A DNA stretch of 59,932 bases from Rhizobium sp. Q54 (GTDB lineage Bacteria > Pseudomonadota > Alphaproteobacteria > Rickettsiales > UBA1997), in assembly GCA_945871805.1 (NCBI GenBank), contig CAMBXE010000003.1:1-59932 (forward strand), read 5' to 3'. The first letter of the stretch is position 1. Each line of letters starts with the position of its first letter. Made by a program: the position numbers and the translations under genes. Shown in pieces: positions 4,659-42,431 of the stretch. A model generated the notes under the pieces. It was not told the origin of the DNA. It saw nothing but the letters and a program-made list of their open reading frames with translations, and made no database searches.

Positions 4659-4673
4659 TTTTCTTTTGTTGGT

Positions 4674-4748
4674 GGCCCCGCAACAAGTGCGGGGTGACAG
4701 CTGAGAGTAGGTGCTAAAAAGTGTCACCCCGCACTTGTTGCGGGGTCC
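4674..4748. repeat. Family-A REP doublet: GG(A)CCCCGCAACAAGTGCGGGGTGAC + 24-nt spacer + inverted copy
   Basis: Arms at 4674-4698 and 4723-4748; spacer AGCTGAGAGTAGGTGCTAAAAAGT is homologous to the spacer at 24590-24613. Confidence 0.95.
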
Positions 4749-6618
4749 ATTTATGACCAAGAACCTTCCTTCCTGCTGCAATCACCACAATCCACAAAAC
4801 CGCTAAAAAACTCAGGGCCAAAGCGCTGAGCAATTTTTGATCATTCACCAAAAACCCAATTCTCACATCCGCCGAGAAAACTTTTTCAATCACCGCAGCG
4901 GTTGTGGTTGTAAGCACGAAGAGCAGCGGAAGCAAAGTCACCAGGCAAAATTTCGCGCCTTTAGTTTTAAAAATAATCACCGTCGCGAGAGTCAAAGCAA
5001 TCCCCGCCAGCATCTGATTCGACATTCCAAAAAGTGGCCAAAGCAGATTCACGCCGCCATTTGGATCAATCACTCCGACGTAAAGAAAATAGCCCCAAGC
5101 ACCCACAATCGCAAAGCTCGAAAAGAGCGGAGATATTTTACGCGAAGTTACATGTTTGAGCAAATCTTCAAGCATGAAGCGCGCTACTCTCGTGCCGGCG
5201 TCGAGCGTGGTTAGAATAAAAATCGCCTCGAACATTATTGCGAAATGATACCACATTGAAAGCATTTGTGAGCCGAAAGCGGAGGAGAAAATATTGGCCA
5301 TTCCGACTGCCAAAGAAGGCGCGCCGCCGGTTCTGGCGTAGAGCGTATTTTCGCCCATTTGTGCGGCAAGATTTTGCATTACTTCGGCGGCAACGGGAAA
5401 TTCTGCGACTAGATTTGGCGAGTTAATCGCGAAGAAAATTCCTGGGTCTAAAACGCAGGCCGAAATCATCGCCATCATTGCCACGCAGCCCTCGAGCAGC
5501 ATGCTGCCGTAGCCGATTAGGCGCACATCTTTTTCGTTAGAAATAATTTTCGGCGTGGTGCCGGAAGCGACGAGAGAATGAAATCCCGAAATCGCGCCGC
5601 AGGCGATCGTAATGAAGAGGAATGGGAAAATTTTTCCGGCGAAAATTGGGCCAGTTCCGTCAACGAATTTTGTTAGTGCCGGCATTTGAATTTCGGGGTG
5701 AAAAATCAGCAAAGCGATTGCGAGCAAAGCGATTGTTCCGAGCTTTAAAAAGGAAGAAAGGTAATCACGCGGAGCGAGGAGAAGCCAGACAGGAAGAGTC
5801 GCCGCAGCAAATCCGTAAATCATTATTGCGAAGGCGAGAAACTTGGCGTCGCGATCAAAAAATATTGCGAGCGCGGAATTTTCATGCACAAATTTTCCGC
5901 CGTAAACTGCGAGTAAAAATAAAATTATTCCTACCAAACTCGCTTCCAGCACGCCTTGCGGGCGGATGAAGTAGAGGTAAACGCCAATCAACATTGCGAT
6001 TGGAATCGTCATTAAAACCGTGAATGAGCCCCACGGGCTGTGCATTAAAGCCTTCACCACAACCAAGCCCAAGACAGAAATTAAAATAATAATAATGGCG
6101 AGAGTGCCGATCAGAGCTGCGTAGCCGGCGGTTGGCCCGAGCTCGTCTTTAATCATTTGTCCCAAAGATTTTCCGTCGCGGCGCAGCGAAGAAAATAAAA
6201 TTACCAAATCTTGTACCGCCCCGGCAAGCGCGCATCCGACCAATATCCACAAGGTTCCAGGCAGGTAGCCAAATTGTGCGGCAAGAGTAGGGCCGATTAG
6301 CGGACCGGGCCCAGCGATTGCGGCGAAGTGGTGTCCGAAGACGATCCAGCGATTTGTCGGCACGAAATCTTTGCCGTCGTTAATACGTCTCGCTGGGGTG
6401 ATTCTGCTTGGATCAAGACACAAAATTTTTGCTGAAATGAAGGCGGAATAAAAGCGGTAGGCGATTAGTTGCGTGCAAATGCAGGCGGTTAAAAACCACA
6501 GTGAGGAAATTTTTTCTTCGCGAATGAGCGCGATTCCGCTGAGTGCTGCAGCGCCTAAAATTCCGATTAAGATCCAAGTCGCTGCTGACCAGAATGAAGT
6601 TGAACGAATGTTTTTCAT
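4714..6618 (-). CDS. cstA: Carbon starvation protein A (peptide/pyruvate transporter)
   Basis: TPA...DGKDFVPT, GHHFAAIAGPGPLIGP, ITIACGAISGFH, TTLDAGTR, LWPLFG motifs; start placed at ATG 6618 because the upstream extension is repeat-derived. Confidence 0.95.
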   Translation of the reverse strand: MKNIRSTSFWSAATWILIGILGAAALSGIALIREEKISSLWFLTACICTQLIAYRFYSAFISAKILCLDPSRITPARRINDGKDFVPTNRWIVFGHHFAAIAGPGPLIGPTLAAQFGYLPGTLWILVGCALAGAVQDLVILFSSLRRDGKSLGQMIKDELGPTAGYAALIGTLAIIIILISVLGLVVVKALMHSPWGSFTVLMTIPIAMLIGVYLYFIRPQGVLEASLVGIILFLLAVYGGKFVHENSALAIFFDRDAKFLAFAIMIYGFAAATLPVWLLLAPRDYLSSFLKLGTIALLAIALLIFHPEIQMPALTKFVDGTGPIFAGKIFPFLFITIACGAISGFHSLVASGTTPKIISNEKDVRLIGYGSMLLEGCVAMMAMISACVLDPGIFFAINSPNLVAEFPVAAEVMQNLAAQMGENTLYARTGGAPSLAVGMANIFSSAFGSQMLSMWYHFAIMFEAIFILTTLDAGTRVARFMLEDLLKHVTSRKISPLFSSFAIVGAWGYFLYVGVIDPNGGVNLLWPLFGMSNQMLAGIALTLATVIIFKTKGAKFCLVTLLPLLFVLTTTTAAVIEKVFSADVRIGFLVNDQKLLSALALSFLAVLWIVVIAAGRKVLGHKWTPQQVRGDTF

Positions 6619-9104: not shown

Positions 9105-10193
9105 TTAGGAAATATTTTTAATGCGAAGAAGGTCGATTTCGTTTAGTAGAAATTTCCCCGGAAGGAGGATTTTCTTACCGTCAGTGACGAAAGAAACCGC
9201 AGTAGTATTTTGTTCGGATTCAGATGCAACTCGCTGAGAAAGTAAGGATTTTAACATTAAAATTTGCTCGCGTCTCGTAATCAAAATTTCGATTTCAGCG
9301 GGAATTTTTTTTGCTTGAGGAGCTGGTTGAATTACTTTTTGTTCAGGAGTTTTTGCTTTGTAACTCGACGAAGAATTTCCTCTAAAATTACGAATTGCTT
9401 GCTGCTTAATATCTTCAAATTCCTCTTTTGCCGCTTCGGTATTTTTCAAGAAATCTTCTAATTTTTTTACGCCCTGAATCAAAATTCTGATTCCGCCTTC
9501 ATCTCTGCGGATCAAGCATTCAAGCGCAACGGCGCTGCCGTCGACTAAAATGTCGCGCGAATTAGTAATTAGCGCTTCGTCGAAAACCATTGTCTCAAAA
9601 ATGCCGAAAGGATCAGAAATATTAATGTAGGCAAAACGTCCGCGCGCACTAGAGCGGTGCTTACTATTCGCGATTACGCCGGCCATTTTTACGAGCGCGC
9701 CATCTTTTAATTCGTCGCGTTCGAGCTTGTCGGAAAATATTACGCCACGCTTGCGCAGGTCGGAAATTACTACGTCGACAGGATGTTCATTTAAGAAAAA
9801 ACCGAAGGCTTCGAATTCTTTTTGTAAGCGCTCAGCTCGGTTCCAATCCTCTGTTTTCTTAAGTTGCGGCTTAGAATTAACTTCGGGCATTCCGCCAAAA
9901 AGACTCATTTGATTCGAAGAAGATTCTTCGTTTTGTTGCGCGGAATAGGCGGAAAGAGTTTCGAATGATTCGGCGATTTGTCGGCGATTTGTTTGCAATT
10001 TGTCAAAGGCACCAGCCTTCGCTAAAGCCTCAATTGATTTTTTATTTATTAGGCGGGGATTGATGCGTTTGGCAAAATCGTAAACATCTTTGAAGTCGCC
10101 ATTTTCTTTACGCTCAGAGGCGACAACTTCCATCGTGCCAAAGCCCACGGCCTTAATAGCACCTAAGCCAAAACGAATCGCGAGATTGCTCAT
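9105..10193 (-). CDS. dnaE: DNA polymerase III alpha subunit, C-terminal portion only (HhH, OB-fold, C-terminal domain)
   Basis: AIRFGLGAIKAVG, ERKENGDFKDVYDFAKR, ALAKAGAFD, EFEAFGFFLNEHP, OB-fold AGVI...FAYINISDPFG; no PHP or palm domain; ATG overlaps uppP stop (ATGA). Confidence 0.85.
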   Translation of the reverse strand: MSNLAIRFGLGAIKAVGFGTMEVVASERKENGDFKDVYDFAKRINPRLINKKSIEALAKAGAFDKLQTNRRQIAESFETLSAYSAQQNEESSSNQMSLFGGMPEVNSKPQLKKTEDWNRAERLQKEFEAFGFFLNEHPVDVVISDLRKRGVIFSDKLERDELKDGALVKMAGVIANSKHRSSARGRFAYINISDPFGIFETMVFDEALITNSRDILVDGSAVALECLIRRDEGGIRILIQGVKKLEDFLKNTEAAKEEFEDIKQQAIRNFRGNSSSSYKAKTPEQKVIQPAPQAKKIPAEIEILITRREQILMLKSLLSQRVASESEQNTTAVSFVTDGKKILLPGKFLLNEIDLLRIKNIS

Positions 10194-10996: not shown

Positions 10997-11081
10997 TGGT
11001 ACCTCCGGCCCGACTCGAACGGGCACATCCTAGGGACAATAGATTTTGAGTCTATCGCGTCTACCATTCCGCCACGGAGGC
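10997..11081 (-). tRNA. tRNA-Leu(CAA)
   Basis: GCCTCCGTGGCGGAATGGTAGACGC...CT-CAA-AA loop, long variable arm, GTTCGAGTC, encoded CCA. Confidence 0.95.
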
Positions 11082-11083
11082 CA

Positions 11084-11141
11084 AAGAAATTTGCCAAGAA
11101 ATTTGCCAAGAAATTTGCCAAGAAAATTGCCAAGAAATTGG
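11084..11141. repeat. 12-bp tandem repeat AAGAAATTTGCC, about 4.8 copies, abutting the tRNA-Leu 5' end
   Basis: Units start at 11084, 11096, 11108, 11120, 11132. Confidence 0.9.
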
Positions 11142-11277
11142 TCAGAGGTTATTTCAAGAGAGCCTTACCACTCAAAACCTCTGACCAGTCTAAAAGTAAA
11201 TTCCAAAAGTAAAAAACCTAAAAAGTAAAAATTTTGGGAGGGCGACTGTAGCAAGTGGGAGATTTAAAAGTCAAACC

Positions 11278-11908
11278 GCCACCCCGCATTCCCGAGTGTC
11301 ACTCCGCATTCCCGGCCATCACCTCGCATTCCCGATTGTTACCCCGCATTCTCGACTGTCACCCCGCATTCTCGACTGTCACCCCGCACTTGTTGCGGGG
11401 CCCATCTCGTCCTTGTCAAAGACTTGACTTTGAAATGGACCCCGCAACAAGTGCGGGGTGACAGCTCGGGGTTGATGAGGAGTGATACTCGGGAATTTGG
11501 GGTAACACTCGGGATTACCAGAGTAACACTCCGCATTACCGATTGTTACCCCACATTCCCGGCCATCACCTCGCATTCTCGACTGTCACCCCGCATTCTC
11601 GACTGTCACCCCGCATTCTCGACTGTCACCCCGCACTTGTTGCGGGGCCCATCTCGTCCTTGTCAAAGACTTGACTTTGAAATGGACCCCGCAACAAGTG
11701 CGGGGTGACAGCTCGGGGCTGATGAGGAGTGACAGTCAGGAATGAGTGGCAACACTCTGGATTACACAGGGCAACACTCGGGATTACAGGGCAACACTCG
11801 GGATTACAGGGCAACACTCGGGATTACAGGGCAACACTCGGGATTACAGAGTAACACTCGGGATTACAGAGTAACACTCGGGATTACAGAGTAACACTCG
11901 GGAATGCT
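11278..11908. repeat. Composite locus: two family-A REP doublets (247-bp period) flanked by oppositely oriented 20-bp tandem arrays
   Basis: REP arms 11378-11403, 11437-11462, 11625-11650, 11684-11709; left units ACCCCGCATTCTCGACTGTC; right units GGGCAACACTCGGGATTACA x4 and GAGTAACACTCGGGATTACA x2 plus a partial (11769-11908). Confidence 0.95.
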
Positions 11909-11953: not shown

Positions 11954-12547
11954 ATGCAAAAAAATCTTATCGAAAATCTTAGTAAAATCATCAGCAGACT
12001 TCCGGGAATGGGCCCGCGAATTGCGAAAAGAATTGTACTACATCTTGCGACTAACAAAGAAAAAATTCTGCAGCCTCTGCTCGAAAATCTTCGTGCGCTA
12101 AACGAAAAAATTCACGAATGCGAAATTTGCGGAAACATCGACGAGGGAAATATTTGTGCGATTTGTTTAAGTCAAAATCGCGACGAAACTCTACTCTGCG
12201 TTGTCGAAGAAATTGCAGATCTTTGGGCGGTTGAGCGGGCGCAAAATTACCGTGGAAAATATCACGTGCTCGGCGGAAATCTTTCGGCGATTTCTGGAAA
12301 AACTATTCAGGACTTAAATTTAAATTCACTTTATTCGCGTCTAGAAAAAGGCGGAATAGCAGAAGTAATTATTGCCACTAGTGCAACAATTGACGGACAA
12401 ACCACCGCTCATTTTCTTTCCGAAAATTTAAAAGATTTCAAAATCAAAATCACCCGCCTAGCTTACGGAATCCCCGTCGGCAGTGAGCTTGATTATCTTG
12501 ATGAAGGCACGATTGCCATTGCCTTCAAAACACGTTTGGAGTTTTAA
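11954..12547 (+). CDS. recR: Recombination mediator RecR
   Basis: LPGMGPRIAKR, CEICGN...CAIC zinc finger, Toprim CVVEE, GDGQTTA-like DGQTTA, RLAYGIPVGSELDYLD. Confidence 0.97.
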   Translation: MQKNLIENLSKIISRLPGMGPRIAKRIVLHLATNKEKILQPLLENLRALNEKIHECEICGNIDEGNICAICLSQNRDETLLCVVEEIADLWAVERAQNYRGKYHVLGGNLSAISGKTIQDLNLNSLYSRLEKGGIAEVIIATSATIDGQTTAHFLSENLKDFKIKITRLAYGIPVGSELDYLDEGTIAIAFKTRLEF

Positions 12548-24543: not shown

Positions 24544-24563
24544 TAGTTAGATAAGGTGTTAAT

Positions 24564-24639
24564 GGACCCCGCAACAAGTGCGGGGTGACAGCTGAGAGTA
24601 AGTGCCCCAGAGCGTCACCCCGCACTTGTTGCGGGGTCC
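24564..24639. repeat. Family-A REP doublet with 24-nt spacer
   Basis: Arms 24564-24589 and 24614-24639; spacer AGCTGAGAGTAAGTGCCCCAGAGC. Confidence 0.95.
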
Positions 24640-24658
24640 GTCAGGTTGTGACGATAAA

Positions 24659-42116: not shown

Positions 42117-42130
42117 GGAATGACGTTAAT

Positions 42131-42412
42131 GGACCCCGCAACAAGTGCGGGGTGACAAATTCTAGACTAGAGTTACAGGGCAACACTTCTAGGAGTTGCA
42201 GGGTAACCTCTCTAGAACTGCAGGGCAACACTCTCTAGAGCTGCAAGGTGCACTCTCTAGAGCTGCAGGGTAAAACTTCTAGAGTTGTGGGTAACGCTTC
42301 TAGGACTGCAGGGTAAACACTCTCTAGAATTGCATGGCGATACTTCTAGAGTTGCAGGGCGAAACTCTAGAGCATTACTCCAATCCGTCACCCCGCACTT
42401 GTTGCGGGGTCC
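42131..42412. repeat. Family-A REP pair enclosing nine 21-24 bp CTAG-containing tandem units
   Basis: Arms 42131-42156 and 42387-42412; CTAG at 42162, 42167, 42189, 42212, 42235, 42257, 42279, 42300, 42324, 42346, 42367; consensus CTAGAGYTGCAGGGYAACACT(C)T. Confidence 0.95.
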
Positions 42413-42431
42413 ATTAAAATTTACAAAAAAA

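Follow-up and report, generated by a model that had tools for sequence, protein, structure and literature searches.

Half-hairpin tandem arrays on the tagged side of a TGTC-tagged palindrome in a Rickettsiales genome

The spacer between a tRNA-Leu(CAA) gene and recR in the metagenome-assembled genome (MAG) deposited as Rhizobium sp. Q54 (GCA_945871805.1; lineage Rickettsiales) contains four copies of a 28-nucleotide (nt) hairpin, here called hairpin A, in alternating orientations, together with tandem arrays of 20-nt units that extend from them. We analyzed this block within a window of 59,932 nt (positions 1 to 59,932 of contig C3, CAMBXE010000003.1), and coordinates without a contig name refer to that window. 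The genome under study (G000) amounts to 1.40 Mb in 63 contigs, with a GC content of 42% and a completeness of 94.7%; other MAGs of its genus, among them G009, G011, G012, G017, G020 and G024, carry the labels Alphaproteobacteria or Rickettsiales. The spacer is laid out as follows.

10997-11081, minus strand: tRNA-Leu(CAA), left border of the array-bearing spacer
11280-11376, plus strand: left array 1, a 20-nt unit (x + TGTCA + CCCCGCA) repeated about five times in phase with the hairpin
11377-11405, plus strand: hairpin A copy 1, head left; TGTCA tag, 7-8-bp stem, CTTGT loop, CCCAT tail
11401-11439, no strand: tail-to-tail linker 1, 39 nt, containing a small hairpin of its own, GTCAAAGACTTGAC
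11435-11463, minus strand: hairpin A copy 2, inverted, head right (ATGGA...TGACA)
11464-11531, minus strand: decayed short inverse array, about three units from the head of copy 2
11532-11623, plus strand: left array 2, about 4.5 units, of which the three closest to the hairpin are identical
11624-11652, plus strand: hairpin A copy 3, head left
11648-11686, no strand: tail-to-tail linker 2, 39 nt, the second copy
11682-11710, minus strand: hairpin A copy 4, inverted
11711-11908, minus strand: right inverse array, decayed proximal units (11711-11747), then 7.7 units of GGCAACACTCGGGATTACAG
11954-12547: recR, right border of the array-bearing spacer

The orientation of each hairpin is given by its tag, TGTCA (CGTCA in some copies), which stands directly 5' of the stem and marks what we call the head. 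From each head in the block, 20-nt tandem units radiate, while the tails face one another in pairs joined by a 39-nt linker that is identical in both modules. A module consists of array, hairpin, 39-nt linker, inverted hairpin and inverse array, and two copies of it occupy positions 11280-11908. An initial annotation, in which the hairpins were called repetitive extragenic palindromes (REPs), had described this array-REP-spacer-REP-array module as duplicated at a period of 247 bp, and we recovered the same offset, with 221 of 239 nt identical (92%); the core at 11341-11471 is the same in both modules, and 18/18 differences fall in the arrays. Tandem Repeats Finder (TRF) placed 20-nt arrays at 11280-11388 (5.4 copies, 82% matches), 11527-11635 (5.4 copies) and 11748-11903 (7.7 copies, 96%), and the self-identity of the arrays at a lag of 20 nt was 0.82-0.90, compared to a maximum of 0.44 in 1000 shuffles. 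Copy 1 of the hairpin folds as DNA at -9.1 kcal/mol (z -3.8).

Several finer points of that annotation also stood. The left units do run in exact phase into the REP, in a gapless 20-nt register that continues into the hairpin's TGTCACCCCGCA, and the inverse array at 11464-11531 meets left array 2 head-on near 11531. The right array, said to match the reverse complement of a left unit at about 15/20 positions and to hold blocks of four and at least two identical units, matched at 13-15/20, with its GGCAACACTCGGGATTACAG units falling into blocks of four and three identical copies. The statement that units are identical near the REP and decayed distally was true of the two left arrays, where the identity of adjacent units from the hairpin outward was 1.00/0.85/0.70/0.70 (left array 1) and 1.00/1.00/0.75/0.60 (left array 2), but the right array is reversed, its hairpin-proximal units being decayed (0.40) and its distal units identical.

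The lopsided placement of the arrays was observed throughout the genome. We scored a flank as periodic when it matched itself at 0.7 or more at a lag of 15-32 nt. By this measure, 20% of hairpin A copies (≤2 mismatches) were periodic on the head side and only 2% on the tail side, compared to 0% of random 90-mers; for copies with a perfect stem the counts were 23/71 and 2/71, respectively, and for loci from other MAGs 16/147 and 0/143. When all hairpin copies were printed in one orientation, a large fraction showed tandem repeats on the head side, each specific to its locus. The same picture was obtained from the arrays themselves. The minisatellite set of the genome comprised 46 TRF arrays (period 15-32 nt, at least four copies), 38 of which had a head-facing family-A hairpin within 60 nt, and five more were hairpin-bounded or belonged to sister families with the same ACCCCG stem, giving a head-side total of 43/46. 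The remaining three were one orphan half-unit array and two lysine-rich coding repeats, and essentially none lay on the tail side. Half-hairpin arrays make up nearly all non-coding minisatellites of this reduced genome, and the proposal that they start at the GTGAC (GTCA) end is borne out both at the tRNA-Leu/recR locus and genome-wide. Arrays accompany 23/71 family-A copies but only 3/77 of the other GTCA-tagged hairpins of the genome combined. The orphan array (C53:5543-5718) has about eight 21-nt half-site units (CCGTCACCC...ATTCTTAAA) and no complete hairpin at either end.

We next consider what is repeated. All 27 hairpin-adjacent units (27/27) retain hairpin positions 1 to 11-15, i.e., the tag, the full first arm and 0-4 bases of the loop, and they also carry 6-14 locus-specific bases of the head-side spacer. 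The second arm is present in no unit, so that only the terminal unit can fold as a complete hairpin. Periods range from 18 to 26 nt, and 18/27 are 20 or 21 nt. Another class of breakpoints, at position 19, is seen in the 21-nt units of G011 and in arrays of 52-54 nt that repeat a whole head-to-head half.

The hairpin itself has the consensus TGTCA-CCCCGCA-CTTGT-TGCGGGG-(T/C)CCAT, and its core occurs 124 times in the genome at two mismatches or fewer. It has a 7-8-bp stem and a 5-nt loop, folds at -9.1 to -10.1 kcal/mol (z -3.8 to -4.6) and, in nearly all copies, bears a C after the closing T of the stem (...GCGGGG-T-CCAT). Among neighboring copies, head-to-head pairs outnumber tail-to-tail pairs by 40 to 26, and by 38 to 12 within 540 nt. 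The spacers of the head-to-head pairs are either short (19-35 nt in 10 pairs) or swollen (72-540 nt in 28 pairs), and both forms are present elsewhere in the window:

4671-4750, no strand: unexpanded head-to-head hairpin A pair with a 32-nt spacer, the basic element
24562-24641, no strand: unexpanded head-to-head hairpin A pair with a 32-nt spacer, centre GTAAGTGC (GCACTTAC on the other strand)
42129-42414, no strand: second cluster of the window, a head-to-head hairpin A pair with cores at 42134-42152 (minus) and 42391-42409 (plus), its inner spacer swollen to about nine 22-nt units (42167-42372)

Comparison with relatives places the origin of both clusters in the G000 lineage. The tRNA-Leu/recR spacer of the four closest relatives, whose recR is 88-90% identical, is 344-370 nt long; it contains no hairpin A and is conserved as far as ...GTCAAACCGCCA, the sequence that the outer end of left array 1 adjoins. 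Likewise, the ddl/ftsQ spacer, in which the 42129-42414 cluster lies, was free of hairpin A in 10/10 relatives compared. Since both clusters are absent at the orthologous sites of relatives, they arose in the lineage of G000. The family as a whole has a patchy distribution, with 0 copies in the closest relatives checked (G009, G020) and 69-130 in more distant members of the genus, and its absence from the former and abundance in the latter mean that it is mobile or was acquired.

Three further observations concern these two sites. The conserved flank GTCAAACCGCCA (11267-11287) resembles the half-site GTCACCCCGCA, and it does so also in relatives without the cluster; the resemblance could be a microhomology junction or chance. 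Within the tRNA-Leu/recR spacer, a 12-nt tandem repeat AAGAAATTTGCC (4.7 copies, 11084-11139) lies directly upstream of tRNA-Leu(CAA) and is kept in the four closest relatives with differing copy numbers and variants, and it is followed by a long hairpin, GGTCAGAGGTT...AACCTCTGACC (11140-11186), kept in 4/4 close relatives. At the ddl/ftsQ spacer of G011 (L184), a heptamer palindrome, (CGTGCTC)n facing (GAGCACG)n, stands where G000 has its hairpin A cluster.

Beyond the genus, the identical 23-mer, GTCACCCCGCACTTGTTGCGGGG, was found in MAGs whose labels are Fibrobacter, Alistipes, Heliobacteriaceae, Anaerovoracaceae and Coxiellaceae (loci L013, L025, L035, L050, L072, L113, L090, L122, L039, L047 and L040), where it is accompanied by sister hairpins that have the same frame and other stems. 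This distribution points to cross-phylum spread or to binning contamination.

We also examined whether the arrays have a young end. Of the 38 hairpin-anchored arrays, 16 were more homogeneous in their proximal half and 19 in their distal half, while three showed no difference between the halves (Wilcoxon p=0.61). The similarity of units to the hairpin half-site did drop with distance, from 0.79 to ~0.6, in an array set chosen for good proximal units. A general decay of arrays with distance from the REP, as proposed in the initial annotation, was thus not found, and the arrays are anchored at the hairpin but lack the consistent young end of a CRISPR array. The likening to CRISPR fails in other respects too: the units abut without spacers and are locus-specific, and an Rfam scan of the window returned two tRNAs and no other family, with no search aimed at cas genes.

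A candidate partner gene was found on contig C33. G000 has five small GIY-YIG genes, one of which (C33:255-557) is flanked directly on both sides by hairpin A, inverted and with heads outward, and tandem arrays run outward on both sides of this cassette. The predicted protein (MPYYTYILTNKPNGTFYTG...AIAREK) has 101 residues and a single recognized domain (PF01541 at residues 3-73, 60 bits); among solved chains, UPF0213 GIY-YIG proteins come closest to it. Its Y6, Y17 and E64 occupy positions that match catalytic residues of the Neisseria nuclease SsnA, mutation of which inactivates that enzyme (PMC11893778). Homologues bracketed by the identical 23-mer were identified in three more MAGs: G011 (contig C31, 82% identity), UBA8987 (L089, 57%) and the Rickettsiales MAG CAYGRX01 (L076, 57%). 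Judging from sequence and gene context, the C33 gene is a member of the ssn nuclease family and the predicted partner of hairpin A. Its stop codon is the TGA within GGGGTGACA of the downstream hairpin (L136/L138), and the last seven codons (MDPATSAG) consequently come from the repeat.

The other four ssn-like GIY-YIG genes of G000 lie at C1:21456, C2:24454, C5:23651 and C23:18580. Three have hairpin families of their own alongside, and none was seen beside the C23 copy; two contain an in-frame stop (TGA in C1, TAA in C23). Separately, tail-to-tail linkers of the genome (for example, window 11401-11439; C28 268-323; C46 280-335; C57 1721-1777) share CCATYTCGTCRCAAG at one end. We considered the 39-nt linker as a relic of an ssn gene and rejected this candidate, as the linker does not convincingly resemble either end of the ssn cassette and CCATYTCGTCRCAAG does not match the cassette ends.

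How, then, did the arrays form? The idea of the initial annotation that they grew by local iterative duplication is supported, and of the routes it had listed, hairpin-induced slippage is the one that we favor. In its variable part, the unit is similar to the right half of the spacer that separates unexpanded head-to-head pairs (32-35 nt). The centres of the short spacers read GCACTTAC/GTAAGTGC, which is a direct repeat of the hairpin's arm/loop junction, CGCACTTG, 20-24 nt away. The youngest array (C24 12598-12666) consists of three perfect 21-nt units bounded by exactly this direct repeat, the 6-nt GCACTT. A short flanking direct repeat is a classical sign of slipped-strand duplication. We therefore propose, as the likeliest cause, that arrays would arise in situ, separately at each locus, through slipped-strand or template-switch duplication, with the hairpin apex as one endpoint and, as the other, a short GCACTT-like direct repeat that lies 20-24 nt upstream in the middle of the head-side spacer. 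Once two units existed, further slippage and conversion would expand, contract and homogenize the array. The arrays of 52-54 nt are accounted for likewise, through the TGCGGGG arm common to both hairpin orientations. Under such slippage, arrays would be confined to the head because only the head side carries the spacer, and the breakpoints at positions 11-15, the period and the concentration of arrays in family A (23/71 versus 3/77) would be explained without an enzyme. We regard these half-site minisatellites, built by slippage at the hairpin apex of an Ssn-related cluster, as the best explanation of the block, with a probability of roughly 0.6.

Several points weigh against slippage as set out above. 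Two metagenome scans for population or length variants, with junction 26-mers and 30-mers, gave no match. Only 3-4 of the 10 short spacers and one young array show the GCACTT microhomology clearly, and it may be what contracted arrays left behind rather than what gave rise to them. A microhomology specific to one family does not by itself account for the head-side arrays at sister hairpin families (C7, C11, C31). Finally, the clustering of periods at 20-21 nt across breakpoint classes is unexplained by slippage.

The strongest competitor assigns the nuclease a necessary part, in that Ssn cutting of the single-stranded head flank would cause the arrays to grow. Neisseria SsnA binds its hairpin only as single-stranded DNA, acts strand-specifically and makes its cut within the variable flank, a few bases upstream of the tag (PMC11893778). 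It also cuts the first half-site, i.e., the cleavage region plus half of the palindrome, when the second half is given in trans, and does so even in rolling-circle concatemers (PMC11893778); the array units correspond to this first half of the site. In one version of the idea, a nascent strand would run off at the cut, re-anneal in the unpaired loop and recopy the stretch from cut to apex, adding one unit per cycle, and such cycles would also yield blocks of identical units. By analogy with SsnA, the arrays would sit on the cut region predicted upstream of the tag, on the appropriate strand, and their units, as half site plus cleavage region, would be cleavable with a second half in trans, concatemers included. 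The position of the edges fits less well: units begin 6-14 nt upstream of the tag, whereas the cut in the Neisseria motif NTS lies ~3 nt upstream, a distance read from oligonucleotide lengths and differing slightly among homologues (PMC11893778).

Genomic comparisons bear on the nuclease in both directions. Arrays are frequent in family A, which has an intact ssn (23/71), and rare at other tagged hairpins (3/77), the largest group among the latter being an NTS-like family whose adjacent ssn has a premature TGA. Against this, G024 has 130 hairpin copies and young arrays, and only paralogous ssn genes with other motifs were detected there, with no cognate ssn; array hits per hairpin were ~0.2 in G000, G011 and G024 alike, whether the cognate ssn was found or not. 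Of the array-bearing copies, 21/32 had their cleavable strand on the G-rich strand (the putative lagging-strand template), compared to 27/63 of the array-less copies (p=0.05), a marginal bias that was derived from GC skew in a fragmented MAG with data points that are not independent. The plain 6-nt direct repeat of the youngest array requires no nuclease. Taken together, Ssn cutting as a necessary cause appears unlikely, although far from negligible, and we hold only tentatively the reading in which the half-site arrays are marks left on the chromosome by Ssn acting in vivo, with a cut triggering repeated recopying from cut to apex. That Ssn raises the rate of slippage events is the least certain step of the proposal and no more than a possibility. 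If the footprint reading were true, the motif would make a growing battery of its own cleavable half-sites, and there would be a nuclease-driven route to polar minisatellites and a clue to how Ssn-related motifs spread.

Much less probable is that the arrays are selected functional elements, such as protein-binding iterons, an array from which small RNAs are processed, or half-sites that serve Ssn as decoys or as programmable sites. The 11-12-nt half-site is well kept in each unit, SsnA can use half-sites in trans and the periods cluster at about two helical turns, as such elements might. Conversely, the variable part differs at every locus, copy number and decay vary widely, the arrays are absent at orthologous sites of close relatives and they occupy arbitrary intergenic gaps; besides the lack of an Rfam match, a scan for promoters and terminators gave no excess of promoter-like or terminator-like sites over shuffles.

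Iterative footprints left at the REP end by a RAYT/HUH transposase (REPIN-type activity), or synthesis by a reverse transcriptase, are very improbable. The REP doublets and inverted pairs do look like REPINs, and genes for Y1 transposases occur in at least 12 genomes of the genus, but these RAYT-like genes are mostly in genomes without hairpin A. No Y1_Tnp match above cut-off was obtained in G000, G011 or G024, the genomes richest in hairpin A (in G000, the sole PF01797 match, of 21.6 bits, was sub-threshold and fell within an open frame of 1594 aa), and G000 has no RVT_1 match. The partner that the initial annotation had suggested, whether RAYT/HUH or reverse transcriptase, is accordingly not seen in G000 above cut-off. 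In addition, the tag is TGTC rather than GTAG, and REPs of the CGTC type are not RAYT-associated (PMC3733652). The RAYT-like Y1 gene of G012 (L129) is flanked by different palindromes, AAAAAGGGGTC/GACCCCTTTTT. A palindrome like those of G012, AAAAGGGGTC...GACCCCTTTT, lies near the Y1 gene of G017 (L128), and the two look like a separate REP system of the genus.

An assembly artefact is conceivable in a 63-contig short-read MAG, given that assemblers can miscount runs of identical units, but it is hardly credible here, where most units differ from their neighbors and are hence resolvable, the longest block of identical units is 80 nt, and the same architecture recurs at ~40 loci and in the independently assembled MEMO01, CAIYMZ01, JBDTIZ01 and a Coxiellaceae MAG.

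One gene of the window outside the array locus deserves mention. A 362-aa open reading frame (9105-10193, minus strand), with uppP on one side and a prepilin-type gene on the other, matches DNA polymerase III alpha over the C-terminal third of the profile only (positions 823-1124) and may be a split or fragmentary dnaE.

The arrays matter for several reasons. Ssn nucleases and their hairpin motifs are a recent discovery, first described in 2025, and the arrays bear on their role outside Neisseria and on the way in which the motifs multiply. The asymmetry toward the head, combined with units that match the half-site and cleavage region, is a genome-wide signature by which a possible action of Ssn on the cell's own chromosome could be tested. 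Even under plain slippage, the pattern predicts hypervariable loci, usable as variable number tandem repeat (VNTR) markers, wherever such hairpins occur, including Rickettsiales and Neisseria. It also calls for caution in annotation, since half-hairpin arrays are neither CRISPR-like nor products of RAYTs.

With respect to known systems, the order of the cluster, (+) linker (-) arrays (+) linker (-), is an alternation of the type seen in the bacterial interspersed mosaic elements (BIMEs) of Escherichia coli and the Neisseria intergenic mosaic elements (NIMEs; dRS3 plus RS units), with which it shares alternating hairpins, two alternating kinds of spacer and amplification of a module, here of 247 nt. 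The repeated units of BIMEs and NIMEs are whole hairpins, or RS elements of 50-150 bp between whole hairpins. In contrast, most units here measure 18-26 nt and contain the first arm only. Searches of the REPIN/RAYT and NIME literature found no description of half-hairpin arrays. REPIN-RAYT systems (Bertels and Rainey 2011, PMC3116915) resemble the present one in their dispersed inverted REP doublets and in a single-copy partner gene flanked by its own repeats, and they differ in having GTAG as their tag and an HUH Y1 transposase as their partner, features not found here.

The initial annotation knew of no named system with this architecture, yet the hairpin fits the CGTC/TGTC-tagged REPs (PMC3733652), which are now known as Ssn-related motifs (SRMs) and have a GIY-YIG partner nuclease (PMC11893778), here with an ssn gene on C33. 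The CGTC-tagged REPs, which include a TGTC variant and for which no dedicated transposase was noted (Di Nocera et al. 2013, BMC Genomics 14:522, PMC3733652), are defined by an 8-9-bp stem with A-T at the first and second pairs, a 4-5-nt loop and a CCA tail. Hairpin A shares with them the TGTC tag variant, an 8-bp stem, a 5-nt loop, the CCA tail, the predominance of head-to-head dimers and an alphaproteobacterial host, and departs from them in that its first pair is A-T and its second C-G rather than A-T. In that study most REPs were not associated with other repeats, and half-hairpin arrays were not described (PMC3733652). The NTS and other SRMs are laid out as CGTCA-palindrome-TCYRG (Chenal et al. 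2025, Nat Commun 16:2388, PMC11893778). Like hairpin A, they have an unpaired (C/T)GTCA tag, a GC-rich 8-bp palindrome and a C after the stem; they are found in hundreds of intergenic copies and as motif-ssn-motif cassettes encoding a single-domain GIY-YIG protein of ~100 aa (94-100) with Y6/Y17/E64 (PMC11893778). They differ in stem and loop, which are ACCCCGCA/CTTGT here and ATTCCCGCG there. Arrays of head-side half-motifs are not described in that paper, in which the word "tandem" occurs 0 times (PMC11893778). On these features, we class the block as a BIME/NIME-like mosaic cluster of a TGTC-tagged palindrome that is a putative SRM.

We found no paper describing the lopsided half-hairpin pattern, and the nearest published case is that of VNTR-141 and VNTR-105 in Wolbachia, also of the Rickettsiales, which are intergenic tandem repeats built on hairpins of 23 bp whose stems measure 9 bp (Riegler et al. 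2012, PMC3287509). Their copy number varies among strains, for which the authors invoke slippage triggered by the hairpin (PMC3287509). The Wolbachia repeats differ in that their periods are 105-141 bp, their hairpins are complete and no head/tail asymmetry was described (PMC3287509). They are also restricted to two loci, whereas half-hairpin arrays in the genome studied here stand at about a quarter of all hairpin copies.

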